Shown piece by piece: positions 10,865 to 54,535 of a stretch of 64,000 bases of DNA. Position 1 is the first letter of the stretch; the number at the start of each line of letters is the position of its first letter. Both the position numbers and the translations under genes were made by a program. This stretch comes from Gammaproteobacteria bacterium (lineage in GTDB: Bacteria > Pseudomonadota > Gammaproteobacteria > Eutrophobiales > Eutrophobiaceae): NCBI GenBank assembly GCA_965221455.1, contig OZ244890.1, positions 2,025,774 to 2,089,773 of the forward strand, in the 5' to 3' direction. Below the pieces are notes generated by a model, which searched no databases, was not told the DNA's origin, and was given only the letters and a program-made list of their open reading frames with translations.

Positions 10865-11664
10865 GAATTGACCATCTGGAGATGGAAAAAGACTCGAAAC
10901 CCTTTCAAGGGGTGGATTAACAGATATAATATCCATTCCGTAGGCAGGGCAATGTCTTTGGACGGATCTCTTGCCAGTAGACTGGATATCAGCAGAAGGA
11001 CGATGGCGGTTCAAGCCATCTAGGGACTGAATTCCCAGGGCAGCGGGCAATAGCGAAATACAAACAGTCACCTTGGAATCCGGAAATAATAAATCAAAAC
11101 TGGGTGATATCCAAAAGCATATTTTGTGATGGAAATGTTATGTCGTGTTGATTAAATAAGTTTTGCCTGTTGTAAAGTCAATAGTCGTTTCTTTTTGGAA
11201 CCACGAAACATGTGTGGTGTCCAGAACCTTAATTGATGGAGTATCAGGTTTTCTGATACCACCATGTGCTACCAGGGTCCCCGTAAATTGAATATGCCGA
11301 TGGGGAGATTTTCAATGAGATGGAGGAACTGGTACAGGTTTATTTCGTTCAGCATGCGAAAAGAATTGCAGAAATGTTAAACTTGATAAATCAACATTTG
11401 TTTGTACAGTAGGTTCAGTAAACTTATCTGAAATTTATATAAAAATAAGCATTGTTAGGTAGGCTAGGGAAACTGTTCAAAAGGTCAGAACCGGATTTAT
11501 ACGACCTGTGAACTGATTAAGTCGGCTCTCAGATAAGCGGGGAAGGGGTGGCTGGGCGGCCGTAATGCAAAACTTAAAAGTATTACTATTGCGTTGCATC
11601 GGGGTGTATTATACGAGATGTCGGCTAAACGAATAGTCCTAGATGTTTATCTGCTGACGTAGGA

Positions 11665-13678
<2,014 letters not shown>

Positions 13679-42519: not shown

Positions 42520-43196
42520 TGGTATAAATCTGTGTGTAGTTTATGAAATAGATATATACTGCAGTCGTTCAATTCAGTTTATTCCCGAAATGAGTTCATT
42601 AGATTGTCTGGGAATGATCATTGGGGTATTCGGTCAACACATTTTTCGATAAGAAATTAGTATTTATTTGGCTAGGGAGTCGATTGATGTATTGGATTAC
42701 CGCCATGAGTCCAAGCTATAATTGTAAAATACTTTTCCTGTCAATTTTTGTGTAAAAACACACTTAATACTACAGATTTCTCTGCATCGATCAATCTTCA
42801 TTCTTGTGCTTATGTTCTGGATTCATAACCATTATAGAGAACGAATCCTGCATCGTATCAAAGATAATTTTACTGTACCAAGGACACATAATAACTGATG
42901 TGCTGTAAAGTTAGATAGTGAATTTTCTAAAGCAGGCATTACTTTCGAAGCGACAATAGTATTGTCCATAGCCTCCCGTTTGTAATTCGCGCATATATCC
43001 ATCCCGATTATGTGTTTCCGGCCTTTAGTTTTTATCTCTTGAACACGATGTCCCTATTAGGATCGCTTGTTGATATGACAATGGTCGGTATATCCAGGCA
43101 GAACAACAGAATTTGCGACTAATTCAACTTACCTCCGCAAGATTATTTAAAGTGGGGTAAAACGGGGAGATGACATCAAGATTATAATAACGAATT

Positions 43197-46100
43197 TTAA
43201 TTCAATAGCTTGAAAACATGATCCAATAAATTTTCTTCTGAGAATGGTTTGTTCAAGTAAACATTAACTCCTGACCTCTTTGCTTGTTCTCGATGCTTTT
43301 CAGTAGATGTTGATGTGACCATAATCACCGGAATATTTGCCGTCTCATGATTCGTGCGTACATAAGCGGTTAATTCCATGCCATTCATTCCCGGCATTTC
43401 CATGTCCACGAGCAGGATGTCGGGAATCTTTTTCTCGATTATTTTTATGGCTTCCAGGCCATTTTTGGCTGTCCTCAGATTACATCCGGCATCTTTGACA
43501 ACTTGACCAAGGGTAATGCGTGCACTTAGCGAATCATCTACGACTAAAGCGGTTGGCAGTGCCGGACGGAAGTCAACTTGTTCCAAATTATCATCGTCAG
43601 CCTTTTCTTTATTTCGTGCAGATGTACGTAACAACTCGGGGATATCAAGTACTGGAACAACGCTACCATCACCAAGAATCGTCGCGCCGGTGATGCCACG
43701 AATATTGCCCATATATTTTCCTATAGACTTGACGACCAATTCTTCGCTGCCTATTAATTCCTGGATATATACAATCTTGTGGATGTCTTCGTCGCGAACC
43801 AGCAAAGCAGGCCCGGTGATCCGTTCGTTCATGCGCCTATCGCCTGGAAAATCAATTAAAATTTCCAGATTAACCAATTCCAGAAGTTCATCGCCTATTT
43901 TGCACATCAATACGTTTTCAGAATCTACTATTCGGCTGTCAGAAAGATCCAGTATCTGCTCAATGCCTCTACCTGAAACAGCGAGCATCTTATTTCTGTG
44001 TCTTATTACCAGGATGCGTGTCGATATTAATGTGACAGGAATTTTCAACTCAATTAGACAACCTTTATCTTTTTCAGACTGGATGTGCAGAGTTCCCTGC
44101 CTGGCAAGAATTTGTGAATAGACGACATCCATACCGATACCTCGCCCTGATACTCGCGTGACTTTTTTGCTGGTGGAGAATCCTCGCCTCAATATCATGC
44201 GTTCGAGTTCCAATGGCGTAGGTTTTTCATGAGGTTCAATGAAGTTGCGGCTGATTGCTGTGGTATGAATTTCGTCATGATCCAATCCTGCACCATCGTC
44301 TTGACAACGTATAATAATTTCCGTCCCCGTGGATGAAAATGATAAATCAATCCTGCCTTCAGCATCTTTATTTTTATTTGTACGCTCGTCATAACCCTCT
44401 ATGCCATGATCAACAGAATTACGCAAAATATGAATTAACGGATCAATAAGGTCATGCAAAATATCACTATCTATCAATGTGTCAGTACCGCTTAAATGCA
44501 GGGTGGCCTGCTTACCAATAGTTCGACATGTTTGTCTGACACTTCTTTGCAATCCAGGTATAATGGTTCCAGCGGGAACCATGCGAATACCCATCACGAG
44601 TCTTTTGACTTCTTTGTGTAAACGTGATTGATCAACGGCGATTTCGTCCAATTCATGCAGTTCATGTTTAATTTTTTTATTTAATTCAGCAGAATCTGAA
44701 ATTGTTTCTGCCAGTCGATTCGTTGTTGTATACAGTTCGTTGTATTTATCTAACTCAAGAGACTCGAACACTTCATTTTGACTGACTGACTGTGATATCA
44801 CGGACGTTCGACATAATTCGATTTGTTGTTTAAGTTGATTGATCAATTGATGAGATGCCTGGTTTTGTTTGATTAATTCATCCTTTTCAATAAAGGAGTT
44901 CTTTATTTTCTTCTGTAATTGTGTGGTGACAGTGATGGTTTCACTTAGTACCTGGACAAGATCGTCGACAATTGCAGCTTCTACCCGTAAAGTGGAAATA
45001 GCTGGATTCTTATCATCATCAACTGTATCAATTTCTTGTTTTGTTGCCAGATTCCTTGCAACAAAGCCTGAATCAGCAGCCGAATCTTCATCAAAAATTC
45101 CAATGCCTTCGTTTTCAAGACGATTAATCCAGTTGAGGATATCCTGTAGTATCTTCAGTGCACTTTCTGGAGTTTTTCCATGCGTCGTGAGTGAGTGACT
45201 CATTTCATCGAGACAATCGGAAGCATTTATCAAAGATGATGCTAATAACCCGGAAGGCGGTCTATTGTGCTGACCTAAAAACTGTAATATATCTTCCAGC
45301 CGGTGTGCCAGCGTTGCAATGCCACGAATTCCAATGGTATCCGCAGTGCCTTTCATTGTATGTGCAATACGTTGAGCTTTCTCTATCTCTTTACTATCAC
45401 CATTGCTATGGATTAATGCGTGGATGACATTTGAGAATCTTTTAGTTTGAGAAGGTAATTCCTGTAACAGGCTATCAAGTAGATTCGCACTTATGTCAGT
45501 GGGTAATTTCAGTGAAATGTCTTCAGCAAAAGCCTTTGCCTGTCCGGGTTTCTTGCTATCTTCTGCAGAAGCGTAAGGAGCATTCAGTAAGTCGATGAGT
45601 GCATGCGTTTTTTCGGCGATAAGTGGTTCTATCCAGTCATCAGAACTTGATATATCGACGATTTTTTCGCCACTACCATCCTTGCCCAGCAAGGATAAAT
45701 ATTCTTTTACGGCTTTGGGCCAGAACCTGATTAAGTTATTCTGGTTTTGTGACGTAATTACACTGCCTTTTTCAATAAGGATTATGTTTTCAAGAATAAT
45801 TTCGTTTGCCTGGTACAGGCCGTCAAGCTCGCCATCCCGACATGCCTTACCAAACCTTTTAAAACGAACTGTCAGTTGTGAGAATGTATCAACTCTTAAT
45901 TTATCACTGACTGTCTCTGATATAATGCCTTCTATTACATCTTCAACATATTCTTCAATCCGTTGAATTTCTTCCATGAGCATGTCAATCAACATCGGAC
46001 TGACAGGATGAGCTTTATCCGCTGTATTGACTTCTTCCATTAAGTCACTAGCGGCACTATCTAAAACCGTGTTCTCCGGTTTGGACTCTTCATTGGTAAT

Positions 46101-46961
46101 CCTGTCAGTAACCTCAAATATTTCCTTAAGTACAGAGATATCCGACCTGGTAAGTGACGATGGCCAATGATGATCAACCAGGGCATTCATCATGGAAAGA
46201 ATCACAGTGTCGTCCGTAGGTGCATTTATATAACGATCAGCATCGTCTATCCATTCTGCCAGGGCAAGATACTGATCGTCTGACAGTTTCCTGCCGTCAT
46301 ATTCCAGATCTTGAAGATCCTGTTGCAAGAATAAACAAATGTCTTTAAATACAGGCAAGTTAGATTCAGATGCAATCATACCCAAGCGATCCAACTGTTT
46401 AATAATATTACCCAGTGCTGGATTGGTGTCAGACCGATAGTCTTTTAGTACCTGTCTCAGTTGTGCCGGAATATCTTCTAATTTTGGGTCTGATGTAACA
46501 ATTTTTCCAACTATTTCCGGCTTATTAATTTTTTCGTTCGTGGTGCTGCCGATAGAACTATCTAAAGGCACCAGCATCTCTTTCATAAAATTGGTATCAA
46601 TATCAGTTAATGGTGTCGGCCAACAGTCGGCTTTGAAGATTTTTAATATATTTTTTGCGCTATTATCATCAGGACGATTGATATAATCCCTGGTCAAGTC
46701 AACCCAGTAAGCAAGTTGTCGCTGTTGTGACGCCCTATAAACAGAATCATCATCAGGTATTTCGAGCAAAAAGCCCTGAAGCAAAAAACAGACGTTCTGG
46801 AAACCGGACATATTTTGTTTCCCCGCATATAGACCGGTCTCTTCCAGTTTTTCGGCAACAGATTCCAATGTCGTATGTACATCCTGCTTCTGGTAGTTTG
46901 CCACGAGTTCAGAAAGTTCTTCTATGTGTTGTATCAGTATGCGAGTAGATTCTGTGACCAC
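43197..46961 (-). CDS. Hybrid chemosensory histidine kinase (HPt - CheA dimerisation/HATPase - CheW - receiver), ChpA/PilL-like
   Basis: HPt HTMKGTADTIGI; HATPase GRGIGMDVV; CheW-like region; C-terminal REC (LVVDDS...DILLVDMEMPGMNG...NKPF). The N-terminal ~450 aa contain two related ~120-aa repeats. Confidence 0.85.
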   Translation of the reverse strand: MVTESTRILIQHIEELSELVANYQKQDVHTTLESVAEKLEETGLYAGKQNMSGFQNVCFLLQGFLLEIPDDDSVYRASQQRQLAYWVDLTRDYINRPDDNSAKNILKIFKADCWPTPLTDIDTNFMKEMLVPLDSSIGSTTNEKINKPEIVGKIVTSDPKLEDIPAQLRQVLKDYRSDTNPALGNIIKQLDRLGMIASESNLPVFKDICLFLQQDLQDLEYDGRKLSDDQYLALAEWIDDADRYINAPTDDTVILSMMNALVDHHWPSSLTRSDISVLKEIFEVTDRITNEESKPENTVLDSAASDLMEEVNTADKAHPVSPMLIDMLMEEIQRIEEYVEDVIEGIISETVSDKLRVDTFSQLTVRFKRFGKACRDGELDGLYQANEIILENIILIEKGSVITSQNQNNLIRFWPKAVKEYLSLLGKDGSGEKIVDISSSDDWIEPLIAEKTHALIDLLNAPYASAEDSKKPGQAKAFAEDISLKLPTDISANLLDSLLQELPSQTKRFSNVIHALIHSNGDSKEIEKAQRIAHTMKGTADTIGIRGIATLAHRLEDILQFLGQHNRPPSGLLASSLINASDCLDEMSHSLTTHGKTPESALKILQDILNWINRLENEGIGIFDEDSAADSGFVARNLATKQEIDTVDDDKNPAISTLRVEAAIVDDLVQVLSETITVTTQLQKKIKNSFIEKDELIKQNQASHQLINQLKQQIELCRTSVISQSVSQNEVFESLELDKYNELYTTTNRLAETISDSAELNKKIKHELHELDEIAVDQSRLHKEVKRLVMGIRMVPAGTIIPGLQRSVRQTCRTIGKQATLHLSGTDTLIDSDILHDLIDPLIHILRNSVDHGIEGYDERTNKNKDAEGRIDLSFSSTGTEIIIRCQDDGAGLDHDEIHTTAISRNFIEPHEKPTPLELERMILRRGFSTSKKVTRVSGRGIGMDVVYSQILARQGTLHIQSEKDKGCLIELKIPVTLISTRILVIRHRNKMLAVSGRGIEQILDLSDSRIVDSENVLMCKIGDELLELVNLEILIDFPGDRRMNERITGPALLVRDEDIHKIVYIQELIGSEELVVKSIGKYMGNIRGITGATILGDGSVVPVLDIPELLRTSARNKEKADDDNLEQVDFRPALPTALVVDDSLSARITLGQVVKDAGCNLRTAKNGLEAIKIIEKKIPDILLVDMEMPGMNGMELTAYVRTNHETANIPVIMVTSTSTEKHREQAKRSGVNVYLNKPFSEENLLDHVFKLLN

Positions 46962-47020: not shown

Positions 47021-48529
47021 TTATTCAATTAATTTAATATCCATATCCATATCCAGTGTCACTGTTTTCTCATTTGCCATGGAATTAGTTACAGTTCTGC
47101 CGGCACCCGCATCTATATTCATACGAGGATTCAGTGTAATGCCCGGGTTTTCTTCATCAATAATTTTTGCGTGTACTTCCTTAAGTGTAAAGCCTGAGAC
47201 TGCATTCACGAGTGATAGGGCTTGTTGTGCCAGTCGGGTTATATGAACCGTTTGTTCTCGTAAATAATCTGCTGTCGTGTTGATGTTATTTCGGACAATA
47301 TCAACACGTTCGCATAATTTACCGGCATGTCGATTTTGCATGGAGGTGCCCTGCACAATTTTTTGTATCATATCGACGATGTAGTCCGTCGTCGTTTGAG
47401 TGGCATGTATCTCATTATCTGCTTGTGTTGCAAGTCTATTTCCCTCAACCGTTTGACCATTGAGTTCATTTATGATGTCTACGATACCGGCTGTTTCCAA
47501 TTGTATATTGTTGATTATTGTTTTTATTTCAGAGCTTGCTTCACGAGAACTTTCAGCCAATCGCTGAACTTCATCCGCCATAACGGAAAAATTACGACCT
47601 GCTCCACCTGCGGATGCAGCATGCATACCTGCATTTAATGCAAGTATGTGCGTTCGTTCAGAGATATCATTGACCAAATTCACCGCAGAGTTAATTTCTT
47701 GAGAATACTCACCAAGTCGTTCAATACGTTTCTCGGTTTCACGAATGATATCCCTGATTTTGTTAATGCCAGTGATGGTATTTGTTACTGTGTTCCTGGC
47801 TGCTTTGGTCGATTTACTCGCGTTATCGGCCGCAGTATTGGAATGTTCGGCGAGCTTATTAATTTTAGCCATGATATCTGACGTTGATGCCAATTCCGTT
47901 ACTATGGCCTTTACGATATTCATTTCATTTTCAGCCAGTAGTATCACGTCATCGGATTGTGCTTTTACGAAATTAGACGTTTCTGAAATTTCCTCTGAAA
48001 TATTTATCACTTCAGTTAAAACTCTGGAGGTTTCAGAAGACATGATGTTAAGTGCATCTGCAATCGGACCGGTTAAGTCCTCGCTGACTACAGCTGTAAC
48101 GGTGAGATTTTTTTTAGCGAGTTGAGTGACGGTCTCAAGTAATTTCAGGATAGAATTATTCAATGTTTCATTTTTGTTTTCGATGGCTGTTATGGCAACC
48201 ATATGATCGTCAAGTATTTTGTTGATGGATCCGCTGATGTCACCTGGTTCATCATCATTTTCAATGTCAATACGTGCTTTTACATCTCCTTCAACTACGT
48301 TTTTCAACACTTCATCAATATGTAGAAATAGTGCGTTATTCTGTTTGACGAAGATGCGGGTAAATATCATGCTTAAGATGATAACCAGAAAAAGTCCAGC
48401 TAGAGATAGATTGCTAATCGATTCAACTTCTGCTGTGCAGGCAAAGAGTGCAAACGAGGCCACGAATAACAGGCTATTTAATATCATTAATGAGATGATT
48501 CGATTTTTTGATTTCATATTGATTAACAT
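47021..48529 (-). CDS. Methyl-accepting chemotaxis protein with two closely spaced N-terminal TM helices (minimal periplasmic loop)
   Basis: Highly conserved MCP signalling hairpin (ERTHILALNAGMHAASAGGAGRNFSVMADEVQRLAE). Confidence 0.85.
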   Translation of the reverse strand: MLINMKSKNRIISLMILNSLLFVASFALFACTAEVESISNLSLAGLFLVIILSMIFTRIFVKQNNALFLHIDEVLKNVVEGDVKARIDIENDDEPGDISGSINKILDDHMVAITAIENKNETLNNSILKLLETVTQLAKKNLTVTAVVSEDLTGPIADALNIMSSETSRVLTEVINISEEISETSNFVKAQSDDVILLAENEMNIVKAIVTELASTSDIMAKINKLAEHSNTAADNASKSTKAARNTVTNTITGINKIRDIIRETEKRIERLGEYSQEINSAVNLVNDISERTHILALNAGMHAASAGGAGRNFSVMADEVQRLAESSREASSEIKTIINNIQLETAGIVDIINELNGQTVEGNRLATQADNEIHATQTTTDYIVDMIQKIVQGTSMQNRHAGKLCERVDIVRNNINTTADYLREQTVHITRLAQQALSLVNAVSGFTLKEVHAKIIDEENPGITLNPRMNIDAGAGRTVTNSMANEKTVTLDMDMDIKLIE

Positions 48530-48586: not shown

Positions 48587-49129
48587 TTACTTTTCGCAAT
48601 TTATATTGCCGAGAACTTTATGAATATCAATCTCTAACCAAATTTCATCAGCAATATCATAGGCCGTATTGATACACTCTGAAAATATTTCCGGAGTCCC
48701 CGGGGGCAGTGGTATTTTGCAGACTTTTTTTTCGTTAATTTCCACCGTGATCGGTAACGTATGAATTAACAGTCCAACCGCGTTATTTCCTTTGCCGATT
48801 ACAAATACGAGATTGCTTACCGCCCCAGTTGTCTTGTTGTCGGTTAAAAATTCACCAATTTGAAAAACCGGTATGATGTTACCACGGAGATTTATCATTC
48901 CACTCATCCATGAAGGCATATTAGGGATTGGATAGATAGTTGATTTGGTGGTTACTTCACACAGGACTGTTTTACCAAAAAGTAAATTCTGCTGACAAAT
49001 ATTAACACCATATCGGGTGTGTCTAATTTGATCGTTCTGTACGATATCAATGTCTTGAAACGGATCAAAATGATCGGTTTGTGAATTGAATTTTATCCAG
49101 TCCGGTCTGATGTTATGCTCGTCGCGCAT
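48587..49129 (-). CDS. CheW-like coupling protein
   Basis: CheW domain (MSGMINLRGNIIPVFQIGEFL). Confidence 0.8.
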   Translation of the reverse strand: MRDEHNIRPDWIKFNSQTDHFDPFQDIDIVQNDQIRHTRYGVNICQQNLLFGKTVLCEVTTKSTIYPIPNMPSWMSGMINLRGNIIPVFQIGEFLTDNKTTGAVSNLVFVIGKGNNAVGLLIHTLPITVEINEKKVCKIPLPPGTPEIFSECINTAYDIADEIWLEIDIHKVLGNINCEK

Positions 49130-49137
49130 AAAAATTA

Positions 49138-49380
49138 TTATAAAGTTAATACAATAAATTCAGATTGAATGTTCATGTGCATATCAGAATAGTCATAAGT
49201 TTTAAGTCGATCCATAATGCGTTCTGCCGCGCGGGATTCACAGACAGGATTCCGATTTCCTGTATGTTTATATTGATATGAGTTTCTTTCTTGATATTTG
49301 TTGTCTGGAGAAATCAACAAGGTTTTCGCTTTTATAACGACTTCTCTACCATTATCAGTTTTGATTATTTCACATCGCAA
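49138..49380 (-). CDS. Small hypothetical protein (80 aa) between the cNMP-binding gene and cheW
   Basis: ORF 8 nt upstream of the cheW start; no recognised family. Confidence 0.35.
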   Translation of the reverse strand: MRCEIIKTDNGREVVIKAKTLLISPDNKYQERNSYQYKHTGNRNPVCESRAAERIMDRLKTYDYSDMHMNIQSEFIVLTL

Positions 49381-49485
49381 GAGTCCTCAAAATATTTTTA
49401 AGGTTTAAAATTCAGTCGGTAAATCATCGACGATCAGAATATCTTGACTGGATATCAGTATACAGTACGGCTATGCAGCGAATTA

Positions 49486-50127
49486 TCATTCAAAACTGTT
49501 GCTTTTGGAAACGAGTTCCTGCATTTCTTTTTTTCGTTGCGTAATGACGGCGGCAAAGGCGAGGGCAACGCGAGGGACATTTTCAAAATAATCCGTCAAA
49601 TCTTCATACTGAGCCTGTAACAATTGTGTCGCTTCCAAAGTACGTACGCAAGCACTTCTGACACCGCCGGCAAAATATCCTATCTCGCCGATGGCTTCCC
49701 CCGGACCAACTTTTGCAATCAGGGTTTCATTGCCGGCATTGTTCAGATGAAATACTTCCACAAGGCCGCGTGCAATGATAAACAAGGAAGGATCCTCTTC
49801 GCCCTGCACAATAAAAGTATCGTTGGTCGGCCGACTGATTTCCGTAAAAACCTTGCTTAGTGCTGCCAGTTCTGTTGTTGATAATGTTGCGAATATAGGA
49901 CATGCAGCAAGTCTGGTAATACGCTGTCTTCTTATACTGCTATCAAGCTCTTCCTGAGTTATAATTTTTTGTTCTACAAGAATTTCCCCGATACGTTTGT
50001 TTTCGTTGGTACCAGTAAATGCAGAATTTATTTGCTTCTCGACGGCGTTATTGATGGCACCTTCGGAAACAAGCATGTATTCCCCAATCTTGTACTTATC
50101 TTTACTGTCCAGGTCATCTGTAGACAA
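49486..50127 (-). CDS. Two-domain signalling protein: N-terminal MshEN-like (T2SSE_N-type, predicted c-di-GMP-binding) domain + C-terminal cyclic-nucleotide-binding (CAP-effector) domain
   Basis: Tandem MshEN motifs KIGEYMLVSEGAINNAVEKQ and RIGEILVEQKIITQEELDSSIRRQ. cNMP-binding beta-roll (FIIARGLVEVF...VGPGEAIGEIGYFAGGVRSACVRTLEA). Confidence 0.7.
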   Translation of the reverse strand: MSTDDLDSKDKYKIGEYMLVSEGAINNAVEKQINSAFTGTNENKRIGEILVEQKIITQEELDSSIRRQRITRLAACPIFATLSTTELAALSKVFTEISRPTNDTFIVQGEEDPSLFIIARGLVEVFHLNNAGNETLIAKVGPGEAIGEIGYFAGGVRSACVRTLEATQLLQAQYEDLTDYFENVPRVALAFAAVITQRKKEMQELVSKSNSFE

Positions 50128-50327
50128 AGTACTCTCCCTATGGAATTAAATTTTTACAGGCTAAAGTTTAGTTGAAACTAATGGACAGATACAATGTTTT
50201 GCAGAAGTGAATGGCGTAATATCAAATAAATCTGATGATTTTTTTATTTCCTTGAATCTCTTTAATATTCGGCTTTCGTTGATCGCCGGGTATAAAACAA
50301 ACGCGACACTGTCAGCATAGCGTTGTT

Positions 50328-51062
50328 TTAAATGAGGGTTACAAATGCCTTGGTTAACATCAACACGCCGCTAATGCTCATTAGCGCCATTGTATAGTGC
50401 TTGAAGCGTTGCATTTTTATATGTAGTAAATGATTCCGCGCAATATAAACGCCGAGAATACCACCTGTGCCGAGTAGTACTCCATAGATCCCCGTCTGCC
50501 AGGTGAGTGCGCCGAAGATTGTGTAAGTTGTCAGTTTACTTAATTGCATGATCAGTGAGTTGAGAGATTTCGTGGCAACAAGTTGTTCTTTCCCCAGATC
50601 ATAACTGAGCATAAAAGGGTTAAGTACGGGACCTGTTGCACCCACTAAGCCGGATAGAAATGAAACCATGGTGCCGAGGGGAAAAAACCATCGGAGTCGC
50701 ATATGAATTTGTAATTTTGTTTTGGAAAATTGATATTGAAATACATAGGAAATCAGGAAAATTCCAATGATTATTTGAATTAGCTCAACATTAATTTGGG
50801 TAAATAACCATGCTCCCAAAATGGCACCCAATATGCTACCGGAGGTGAGCCGCTGAATGACTTTCCAATCGATATATTGATAGAAGAAAAAAACCCGGGA
50901 GGGGTTAGCGCAGAGGGATGCAACTGAAATAACAGGTGGCACAAGTTGCGCCCCTAACAGAAAGCCGATGACAGGAACAAGCAGTGTTGCGCCGCCTCCA
51001 GCTGCTGCGGTACTGATTGTCCATGCCACAAGCCCGGATAAGAATAAAAACAGGTAAATCAT
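50328..51062 (-). CDS. TSUP-family (TauE/SafE) membrane transporter
   Basis: Two-repeat 4+4 TM organisation with G-rich motifs (AAAGGGATLLVPV; GLVGATGPVLNPF). Confidence 0.8.
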   Translation of the reverse strand: MIYLFLFLSGLVAWTISTAAAGGGATLLVPVIGFLLGAQLVPPVISVASLCANPSRVFFFYQYIDWKVIQRLTSGSILGAILGAWLFTQINVELIQIIIGIFLISYVFQYQFSKTKLQIHMRLRWFFPLGTMVSFLSGLVGATGPVLNPFMLSYDLGKEQLVATKSLNSLIMQLSKLTTYTIFGALTWQTGIYGVLLGTGGILGVYIARNHLLHIKMQRFKHYTMALMSISGVLMLTKAFVTLI

Positions 51063-52017: not shown

Positions 52018-52521
52018 TTATCCCGCAGAAGGGAAAATTGCTGCATATTTACCGATCCATTCTTCAGCGACATGTTCATCATTGACGAATGGGCCATCTT
52101 GCTGTCTTTTCGTTTTGAGATAGGTTTCTATATGACAAATTTGCTCAACAACACGTGCCCGATGTACATCGTCTTGTGTCAGCCACATACCAATCTCGAA
52201 GTGATCTTCCATATTTCTGACCAGCACAATTTTGCCGCGAAAGCTTTGCGTCTCGCCTTTGAGTGGAATCGAAATTTCAATCCTGGTTCCAGGTTTGAAG
52301 TATTTTTCAGATCTGAAGCATAAACCAATGGTTCGTCCTTTCTCGTCGGAACGAGTTTTTTCCCTACCAAGCCAGACTTTTTTACAACTTAGAGGAAATG
52401 TCGGCGGATGATGCATAAAACCCGACAGTAGACCATCGTCAATGGTGACCGAATATTGTCTTTCGTGCAGCGGATTGTTTCGACCATCCCCGTAAACTCC
52501 CGGATGTGCATGAGCCATCAT
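52018..52521 (-). CDS. Hypothetical protein (167 aa), possibly a degenerate PilZ-like beta-barrel
   Basis: RxxxR-like (GREKTR) and a downstream beta-rich segment; the canonical DxSxxG is absent. Confidence 0.4.
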   Translation of the reverse strand: MMAHAHPGVYGDGRNNPLHERQYSVTIDDGLLSGFMHHPPTFPLSCKKVWLGREKTRSDEKGRTIGLCFRSEKYFKPGTRIEISIPLKGETQSFRGKIVLVRNMEDHFEIGMWLTQDDVHRARVVEQICHIETYLKTKRQQDGPFVNDEHVAEEWIGKYAAIFPSAG

Positions 52522-53336: not shown

Positions 53337-53573
53337 CTAAAAAAATATGTCACTGTCCGCCATCGTCTCTCTCCCGGTCCATGATCGCGGCGTTTTTTGG
53401 TGCCCGCCTTGTAGCTGTAGCGGGTTTGGCGGTGCGCCCAACGTTCCTGGTGTTTGCCGCTCGCGCCGGACGGTGTATTGACCAAGTTGTTTATGTGAAT
53501 TGAAATCGCCTCATCAAGATTAGTGGACTGGGGCCTCTGCCGGTAGTAGGGCGATACTAGCGTAGGGTGACTC

Positions 53574-54535
53574 ATGCAACATTTTTCAGCAAGATCGTTT
53601 CTGGTCGCGTTGGGTTGGTTTTTCACTGGCTTGGTGTTTGCGCAAAGCCCGGGCCTGACATACGATCCCACCGTCTTGACGGCGGAGGATAGGGAGTACA
53701 GCGACGTTCACCGTCCGGCTGAATACCCGGCCGACCCGCGCTGTGGTCCTTACGATAGAAGTTATTACGGGTGGTCTAGGCATGAATACGGATCTCGTTT
53801 TCCACGGCGGCAACTGGAACACGCCACAGACCCTAACGGTGGGTGCTGCGCAGGACAGTGATGCGAACTCCCGGACCGTGCCTCTGAGAGCCAGGCTGGT
53901 TAGTGGCGACTCGAATTATGATACGTGCGTGCGTGCCATAGATTTGGTAGAACTGACGGTGAATGATGACGAGACGGCGGGCGTGACTGTGAGTGATGCC
54001 ACGCTGACGCTCGGCGTCGGTCAGCCCGACAACACTGACCTTTACCGAGGACAACTGGAACAGTGCCCAGACGGTGACGGTGACAGGTGTCCAGGACGCT
54101 GATGAGAACGACGAGCGCGTGCAACTGAGTCATACCGTGACGAGTACGGACATCGCCTATCGTGCCGTGACGGCGACCGTGGTTGTGACGGTCACAGAGT
54201 TCAATCTTGATGTGGATGGCAGCGGCGGGACCGCGAATCAGAGTGACGGGCTGATGATTGGTCGCTACCTGTTTGGTATTCGTGATATGGCGGGCTTGCT
54301 TGACACTATCCCGGGGAGTCCCTCGTTTAGTGAGATCAGTGCGGATATTGCAAGGGGGTGGCCAGCGGTCGTCTTGATGTGGATGGCAGCGGCGGTGCTG
54401 CGAATCAGAGTGACGGGCTGATGATAGGCCGCTATCTGTTTGGTATTCGTGATACGGCGGGCTTGCTTGATACTATCCCGGGCAATCCATCGTTCAGTGC
54501 GGTCACGACGAATATCGGCGCACTTTTGCGGTAAT
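53574..54535 (+). pseudogene. Frameshifted remnant of a secreted repeat-protein gene (dockerin-like / DVDGSG Ca-binding-type repeats), GC-rich
   Basis: Signal-peptide-like start (MQHFSARSFLVALGWFFTGLVFAQSP). The coding sense continues through three different frames (ORFs 53574.., 53743.., 54074..). Repeated 'NWNTPQTLTV...D(S/A)D' modules; two copies of LDVDGSGG(T/A)ANQSDGLMIGRYLFGIRD(M/T)AGLLDTIPG. Confidence 0.5.
54206..54535 (+). repeat. Tandem direct repeat, 2 x ~167 bp (~90% identical); the period is not a multiple of 3
   Basis: cttgatgtggatggcagcggcgg...ggtattcgtgata(t/c)ggcgggcttgcttga(c/t)actatcccgg starts at 54206 and again at 54373. Confidence 0.8.

Follow-up and report, generated by a model that had tools for sequence, protein, structure and literature searches.

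Within a 64,000-nucleotide stretch of contig OZ244890.1 from a gammaproteobacterium (assembly GCA_965221455.1; hereafter the window, whose numbering is used throughout), we analyzed a gene for a 213-residue protein that combines an MshEN-like helical bundle with a cyclic-nucleotide-binding (CNB) domain. The original prediction, made from the sequence alone, had described this reading frame at 49486-50127 as a cyclic di-GMP (c-di-GMP)-binding MshEN-like domain fused to a CNB domain, standing at the head of a chemosensory operon. The frame lies on the minus strand, and both motif strings quoted in that description were found in its product (K13-Q32 and R45-Q68). The gene and the parts of the protein are as follows.

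49486..50127 (stop codon included), minus strand: gene for the di-domain protein (213 residues; MshEN_N-like bundle, CNB domain and C-terminal helix), from the open reading frame (ORF) list and the sequence
50132..50139, minus strand: Shine-Dalgarno-like AGGGAGAG, 4 nucleotides 5' of the TTG start (50125-50127), read from the sequence
50032..50091, minus strand: motif 1 (K13-Q32), KIGEYMLVSEGAINNAVEKQ, 20 residues of shortened MshEN type (KIG...IxxxVxxQ), from a pattern scan and hhalign
49924..49995, minus strand: motif 2 (R45-Q68), RIGEILVEQKIITQEELDSSIRRQ, the canonical 24-residue MshEN motif save for Lys54 at the turn-glycine position, from NF053729, profile search and hhalign
49582..49830, minus strand: CAP/CRP-type CNB beta-roll, residues 100-182, from Pfam PF00027, phmmer and Foldseek
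49651-49689, minus strand: phosphate-binding cassette G147-E148...R157-S158-A159, from alignment to CRP/CAP
49495..49575, minus strand: long C-terminal helix, residues 185-211, counterpart of the CRP C-helix, from the secondary structure of the AlphaFold2 (AF2) model

The gene is real, conserved and under selection. Public collections contained a protein identical to it as well as over 150 clusters of homologues, nearly all of 207-215 residues. A scan of a genome collection, with extension of the matching ORFs, recovered relatives at 44-79% identity as stand-alone proteins of about 210 residues, all from uncultured Gammaproteobacteria. The annotated TTG start is sound, because close relatives begin at the same position with a leucine codon (TTG or CTG) and conservation in the family alignment sets in well ahead of the first internal methionine. 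An Rfam scan of 49050-50400 gave no match, and hence no riboswitch 5' of the gene. The AF2 model of the full protein had a mean pLDDT (per-residue confidence) of 85 and a pTM (predicted TM-score) of 0.78.

The CNB domain and the N-terminal bundle

Residues from about 75 to 182 form a CRP-type CNB domain, as the original prediction had proposed; its phosphate-binding cassette is intact, and every test of CNB membership agreed. Pfam cNMP_binding (PF00027) scored 57.3 bits over residues 100-182 (E=1.5e-15; cutoff 27.5). Searches with phmmer aligned the protein to CRP/CAP structures from Streptomyces (2pqq, 3e-14), to Thermus thermophilus CAP (3e-12), and to Mycobacterium tuberculosis CRP and Escherichia coli CAP (E about 1e-9). 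The same relationship was evident in the fold. Foldseek with the whole AF2 model returned CNB proteins only; M. tuberculosis CRP, GlxR and T. thermophilus CAP matched at E of about 1e-11 with TM-scores of 0.55-0.59, and superposition on CRP, GlxR and CAP gave a root-mean-square deviation (rmsd) of 1.7-2 A over about 135 columns. The cassette residues align with GEMSLLDEGERSA of T. thermophilus CAP, and G147, E148 and R157 were invariant in family alignments down to 30% identity.

The beta-roll, the GE...R[ST]A cassette and the C-helix are thus shared with E. coli CAP, M. tuberculosis CRP and T. thermophilus CAP. Unlike these proteins, the 213-residue protein has an N-terminal MshEN-like bundle and lacks a helix-turn-helix domain. 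None was found by Pfam, by NCBIfam or in the AF2 model, and the chain ends after the C-helix. The phmmer alignments to CRP all stop at chain residues of about 130-140, in the C-helix, where the 213-residue protein also ends.

Ahead of the CNB domain, residues 13-74 are predicted to form an MshEN_N-like bundle with the shortened 20-residue motif and the canonical 24-residue motif in tandem. When the 64-kb window was translated in all six frames, each motif pattern occurred once, compared with about 0-0.1 occurrences in shuffled sequences, and both are kept in more than 150 homologue clusters; they are therefore not products of chance. A profile of the N-terminal domain (A2), built from 52 homologues of several phyla, was searched against the whole Protein Data Bank (PDB). 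It matched PilF (1e-16), Geobacter PilB (2e-10), Vibrio cholerae MshE (5htl, 1.9e-7) and PilF GSPII-B. Solely MshEN/GSPII domains were significant, the next matches having E>0.4. Comparison of the family profile with residues 1-79 of V. cholerae MshE by hhalign gave a probability of 96%.

The alignments to the PDB profiles, to V. cholerae MshE and to the NCBIfam model NF053729 all run through motif 2 only. Motif 1 was compared separately. Its sub-profile aligned with that of motif 2 at 94% probability, in an internal-repeat test by hhalign, and with motif I of V. cholerae MshE at 70%; as one-against-one comparisons, these probabilities are to be read modestly. Both alignments share a single 4-residue gap (KIGEYML----VSEGAINNAVEKQ).

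Each MshEN motif contacts c-di-GMP through R-L-G...L-x3-L-x2-Q (Wang et al. 2016). The equivalent positions here are K13/I14/G15...I25/V29/Q32 in motif 1 and R45/I46/G47...L61/I65/Q68 in motif 2, which are conservative substitutions relative to MshEN. Q32 and Q68 were invariant, and G15, G47 and L61 were conserved in at least 90%, across 47-52 sequences of about 30% overall identity that came from Gammaproteobacteria, Desulfobacterota, Acidobacteriota and Planctomycetota. As in MshEN_N of V. cholerae MshE (5HTL) and in GSPII-B/C of T. thermophilus PilF, motif 2 stands in the register RLGxxhhxxGhhxxxxLxxxLxxQ, and both motifs open with [RK]-h-G and close with h-x3-h-x2-Q. Four helices are predicted, which AF2 placed at residues 14-17, 22-38, 46-52 and 58-74 in whole-protein and N-terminal-only models alike. 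When the N-terminal-only model was searched against the PDB with Foldseek, the best match was 5htl_A, MshE with c-di-GMP (probability 0.91; all others <0.15).

Several observations weigh against equating this bundle with a canonical c-di-GMP site. NF053729, a 53-position model of the MshE-related c-di-GMP motif, matched at E=8e-7 and 28.8 bits without reaching its cutoff of 38, and only its positions 1-27, half the model, were aligned (residues 45-71). Motif 1 lacks four residues at the hxxG turn, the first turn glycine among them. The spacer between the motifs is 12 residues, unlike MshEN_N, where two 24-residue motifs and a 5-residue spacer make up 53 residues. Lys54 occupies the second turn-glycine position and falls outside the relaxed [GAS] pattern of Wang et al. 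(2016), so that this pattern is unmatched; glycine is nearly invariant here in the family, with lysine in the 213-residue protein and its closest relative (P0002). The first position of motif 2, R45, which corresponds to R38 of V. cholerae MshE, varies among R, P, L, H and F. Finally, the structural match to 5htl_A is weak (E=0.56, TM-score 0.48, rmsd 6 A).

We regard the N-terminal domain, as far as its sequence can tell, as a divergent relative of MshEN_N and not a canonical member, because homology and contact residues agree with that family, whereas motif length, spacer, turn glycine and curated cutoff do not. The MshEN assignment of the original prediction accordingly holds in part. Motif 2 bears it out at the profile level and in the 24-residue register, but motif 1 is truncated and is separated from motif 2 by 12 residues, not 5, and the curated NF053729 threshold was missed. 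The check suggested at the time, a match to Pfam T2SSE_N (PF05157), failed for the 213-residue protein even at E<=1, although MshEN homology emerged from other profiles. PF05157 omits the first three MshEN helices and hence the c-di-GMP site (Wang et al. 2016). Because the model leaves out this site, the missing match is uninformative, and we judged the test invalid. A weak Pfam match to DUF4388 (E=0.003) arises from the same 24-residue motif, which is embedded in that model.

Occurrence of the di-domain in other proteins

The same genome scan showed that relatives at 30-40% identity are the N-termini of much longer proteins, of about 950-990 residues. Pfam resolved these long homologues as di-domain - GAF - GAF - PAS - Guanylate_cyc (- TPR). 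Their cyclase domains carry FSDIRGFT, KF[IM]GD and DFTVIGDxVNxASR, and with these motifs the Lys/Thr substrate pair that marks class IIIb adenylate cyclases in the Linder and Schultz classification. A di-domain - GAF - GAF arrangement is encoded at two gammaproteobacterial loci. In a test for fission partners, no cyclase gene was found beside the di-domain-GAF-GAF genes of L019 and L024.

An exhaustive search with a profile limited to the N-terminal domain (A5) matched 4583 proteins at E<=1e-3. Matches with many stretches were proteins carrying arrays of the 24-residue motif. Ten matches with a single stretch were scanned for domains, and all ten had a cNMP_binding domain, starting at residue 94-104; in eight of them the N-terminal profile was matched essentially end to end. 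Their architectures comprised the stand-alone form and fusions to GAF, GAF-GAF, SpoIIE (PP2C), GAF-GAF-SpoIIE and GAF-GAF-PAS-cyclase. Altogether, bacteria carrying the di-domain, none of them cultured to date, belong to Gammaproteobacteria, Desulfobacterota, Acidobacteriota and Planctomycetota.

Judged by these architectures, the di-domain is a portable input module of constant order and spacing, carried by cyclases, PP2C (SpoIIE) phosphatases and GAF-only proteins. Our main positive result is this predicted helical bundle, obligately paired with a CNB domain and placed upstream of outputs that make cyclic AMP (cAMP) or otherwise signal.

Among the A5 matches, P0165-P0177 are large proteins in which the 24-residue MshEN-type motif is repeated 7-12 times in tandem; Hpt, bacterial TSP3 and dockerin domains are also present in some of them. 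Pfam detects these arrays solely by the central part of DUF4388 and by spurious FumaraseC_C matches.

Neighboring genes and related loci

Downstream of the di-domain gene, on the same strand, lie the remains of a receiver (REC) gene and three chemosensory genes.

49138..49449, minus strand: decayed CheY-type REC pseudogene, covering the 105-nucleotide gap (49381-49485) and the 80-residue ORF (49138-49380), from tblastn
48587..49129, minus strand: CheW-like coupling protein, from Pfam CheW (E=1.3e-14)
47021..48529, minus strand: methyl-accepting chemotaxis protein (MCP), from Pfam MCPsignal (E=3.6e-24)
43197..46961, minus strand: hybrid CheA, Hpt - HATPase_c - CheW - receiver, from Pfam and NCBIfam CheA

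Beyond cheA follow sohB, an aminotransferase gene and a glycerate kinase gene. With the intact 121-residue receiver of a 79%-identical relative as the tblastn query, the region next to the di-domain gene reads ILIVDDLPTEF*TLKIF*GLLRCEIIKTDNGREVVIKAKT.... It is interrupted by two in-frame stops and lacks the phospho-acceptor region, which a deletion of 33 residues has removed. An independent metagenome contig (L001) carries the pseudogene in the same state. The order REC-CheW-MCP-CheA/REC resembles that of pilus-type clusters, and the CheA is a hybrid with Hpt and a C-terminal receiver, but the evidence does not place the cluster in the Pil-Chp (type IV pilus) class: Pfam found no PilJ N-terminal domain (PF13675) in the MCP and no CheR or CheB (counterparts of PilK and ChpB) between tauE and sohB. 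The receivers of the relatives gave generic NCBIfam matches only, with no PilG/PilH class, and the 213-residue protein itself had no REC domain in Pfam. Promoter and terminator scans of 42.4-51.2 kb yielded counts equal to those of shuffled sequence and so say nothing about co-transcription; the interval from the di-domain gene to cheW contained no convincing terminator. The rest of the window held no type IV pilus genes and no GGDEF/EAL genes, only housekeeping genes (the nuo operon, thiC, trpS, tpiA and others).

For comparison of the chemosensory neighborhood, about 20 related stand-alone loci offered 4 kb or more of sequence downstream of the di-domain gene. The gene is followed by a che cluster in seven of these, the window included, and the cluster is absent from 12-13. 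In L087 (69% identity) the order is tauE - di-domain gene - (13 nucleotides) - REC - CheW - MCP - CheA/REC - sohB. L082 (79%) has a degenerate and an intact REC ahead of CheW, and L017, L025 and L011 have two RECs each; a distance of 3.6-3.8 kb separates the che genes of L011 and L025 from the di-domain gene. By comparison, sohB directly follows the di-domain gene in L085 (61%) and L007 (57%), where che genes are missing, and unrelated genes follow it in L084, L086 and others. The degenerate receiver of L082 is a 162-residue ORF (11190-11678, plus strand) 5' of the intact REC. It reads ...ALVVDDSLP... and then ...PIILLTGNSS...LIKP with the center missing, and Pfam Response_reg matched at profile positions 68-108 only (E=2e-4).

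The simplest reading is that an ancestral che cluster lay between the di-domain gene and sohB and has repeatedly decayed or been lost, the di-domain gene being kept. Decay of the cluster is indicated because the window holds a REC pseudogene, because L082 holds a degenerate REC, and because a pair of REC and Ser/Thr kinase genes has been lost in the window. These comparisons bear directly on the chemosensory part of the original prediction. It had placed the protein in the slot normally held by PilG/PilH-type regulators, but that slot holds the decayed CheY gene, which is intact in L082 and L087. Its role as a non-CheY adaptor heading the operon does not fit a CheY remnant before cheW and a family that largely does without the cluster, and a che cluster, whose co-occurrence it had suggested checking, is absent from the vicinity in about two thirds of the related loci. 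The 105-nucleotide gap to the next ORF does exist, but gap and 80-residue ORF are one dead CheY gene.

Several further observations concern the cluster and its surroundings. The cheA-sohB interval (42520-43196) is a 677-nucleotide non-coding gap with faint remnants (tblastn E of about 1e-3) of the REC (213 residues) and Ser/Thr kinase (248 residues) genes that follow cheA in L082. The N-terminal third of CheA, residues of about 1-350, contains internal repeats of about 130 residues, and tblastn of CheA against related loci matched residues 1-150 and 1-354 a second time, with overlap. The repeats may be multiple Hpt-like or other modules, as in ChpA-type kinases. On the 5' side, a DUF4139 gene, a gene for an unknown 375-residue protein and a Sel1-repeat protein gene precede the di-domain gene in L084, L085 and L082 (59-79% identity); tauE takes the place of this trio in the window and L087.

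Proposed function of the di-domain

On balance we lean, with modest confidence, toward a small cytoplasmic second-messenger receptor that is built from the conserved di-domain and has no output domain of its own. Its CNB domain would bind cAMP, a ligand suggested because the pair of bundle and CNB domain sits upstream of cAMP-making or signaling outputs. The Lys/Thr substrate pair of the fused cyclases, which is that of adenylate cyclases, suggests that the fused forms sense their enzyme's own product. For the N-terminal bundle the ligand would be c-di-GMP or a related dinucleotide, contacted at the conserved [KR]-h-G...h-x3-h-x2-Q positions of both motifs. The ligand state would be relayed by way of the C-helix to a partner, which would be another protein or, in the fused forms, the GAF/cyclase or phosphatase domain that follows.

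The isolated MshEN_N subdomain binds c-di-GMP, and in MshE the changes G11L and G40I abolish binding, while changes at Arg9 cost less than 5-fold in affinity (Wang et al. 2016). For the family as a whole, we put binding of c-di-GMP or a related dinucleotide at roughly even odds from its conserved contact positions, and for the 213-residue protein somewhat lower. A dual role in sensing c-di-GMP and cAMP is plausible. A more specific version, in which the di-domain acts as a coincidence detector for cAMP and c-di-GMP (or another cyclic dinucleotide), serving as the input module of cyclases and PP2C phosphatases and as a free-standing adaptor in these Gammaproteobacteria, is tentative and would not be our first expectation.

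Parts of this proposal have parallels in known systems. CbpA of Pseudomonas aeruginosa is not known to have a DNA-binding domain. Like this cAMP-binding protein (PMC11139211), the 213-residue protein would be a small, cytoplasmic, non-transcriptional cAMP effector that presumably acts via protein contacts or localization; compared by domain make-up, it differs in its MshEN-like domain, which CbpA is not known to carry. In their GAF-GAF-PAS-class III cyclase(-TPR) layout and in their Lys/Thr substrate pair, the long homologues agree with the Anabaena adenylate cyclases CyaB1 and CyaB2 (GAF-GAF-PAS-cyclase; PMC4411481). They differ from these in adding the N-terminal MshEN-like and CNB di-domain, which the window protein carries alone.

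Use of MshEN_N as a portable input domain is also familiar from the fusions of Wang et al. (2016), which include REC, CheA, CheX, adenylate cyclase, kinases, glycosyltransferases and MshEN-T2SSE-cNMPbind (their Supplementary Table 4). The legend of their Fig. S3b mentions an association of MshEN_N with cNMP-binding/cyclase domains, treating cNMP binding in general terms only. A stand-alone di-domain of MshEN_N-like and CNB parts with a shortened motif 1 is not among the architectures of Supplementary Table 4. Unlike MshE and PilF, the protein has neither an MshEN_C/T2SSE_N1 subdomain nor an ATPase, the CNB domain follows instead, and its ligand binding is a prediction.

The nearest competitor is a receptor that senses only cAMP (or cGMP). 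Here the bundle would be a degenerate MshEN_N relic that binds no nucleotide and serves the CNB domain as an N-terminal helical extension or dimerization element. We consider this unlikely on the whole, though worth serious attention. The deletion in motif 1, the long spacer and Lys54 all speak for it, as do the subthreshold half-match to NF053729 and the poor superposition on 5htl. The GSPII-A domain of PilF, which fails to bind c-di-GMP, supplies a precedent, and its example that small deviations can abolish binding counts against our proposal too. So does the window copy itself, with its suspicious Gly-to-Lys change beside a decaying signaling locus. An integral extension would moreover be expected to occur always with a CNB domain, as the bundle does. 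What argues against a relic is the pattern of conservation: the invariant and near-invariant positions are the MshEN contacts (both hG-turn glycines, both terminal glutamines and the LxxxL hydrophobics), and a purely structural bundle needs no two invariant glutamines at contact positions.

It is improbable, in our assessment, that the protein is instead a non-CheY adaptor that heads a chemosensory operon and feeds c-di-GMP and/or cyclic nucleotide signals to CheW, MCP and CheA in place of PilG/PilH. The gene does lie on the same strand immediately 5' of the che genes in the window, seven related loci, counting the window, have the cluster downstream, and MshEN_N fusions to CheA and CheX are known. 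In L087 just 13 nucleotides part the gene from an intact CheY gene, which weighs against separating the two systems; co-transcription with the che genes in this subclade is possible, and so is a functional link, though such a link is not indicated. Set against this, the PilG/PilH slot is filled by a CheY gene, intact in relatives and decayed in the window; the stand-alone loci without che genes outnumber those with them, the gene abutting sohB in L085 and L007; several kilobases intervene in L011 and L025; and outputs across phyla are cyclases and phosphatases, not che proteins. The MCP without a PilJ domain and the absence of CheR and CheB also count against it. The 213-residue protein does not take the place of the cluster's CheY-type regulators, and only part of the family has the gene next to such a cluster.

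Public records name such proteins "Crp/Fnr family transcriptional regulator" or "CRP-like cAMP-binding protein", and the top NCBIfam match is CRP. That profile was matched only over positions 28-137 of 214, its CNB part, at 48.5 bits against a cutoff of 266. A Crp/Fnr-family transcription factor is ruled out by the missing DNA-binding domain, and the name "Crp/Fnr transcriptional regulator" is wrong because the protein ends after the C-helix without a helix-turn-helix.

The two readings that keep the CNB domain as a sensor differ in their consequences. Bacteria have two global nucleotide messengers, cAMP and c-di-GMP, and proteins known to read both are few. If the di-domain binds both, it would be a compact and widespread module that could let c-di-GMP gate the synthesis of cAMP, in the CyaB1-like cyclase fusions, or the dephosphorylation of proteins, in the PP2C fusions. 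Such a direct, protein-level node of cross-talk would rest on a 20+24-residue form of the MshEN site that had not been described before, and the sequence definition of that site would widen to include a shortened first motif. Binding of cAMP alone would add one more non-transcriptional cAMP effector, a useful but ordinary finding.

Two features on the 5' side of the gene stand apart from these questions. A 167-residue ORF about 2 kb away (52018-52521, minus strand) matches PilZ weakly and below threshold (18.3 bits, where the cutoff is 22.5; E=0.003) and may be a degenerate c-di-GMP receptor. Farther out, at 53500-54500, a GC-rich island (56-58% GC, compared with 35-45% around it) lacks a long frame and is filled on both strands by numerous short ORFs that overlap one another; fragments like ...VNDDETAGVTVSDATLTLG... 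resemble what is left of a repetitive adhesin-type gene, possibly of foreign origin.

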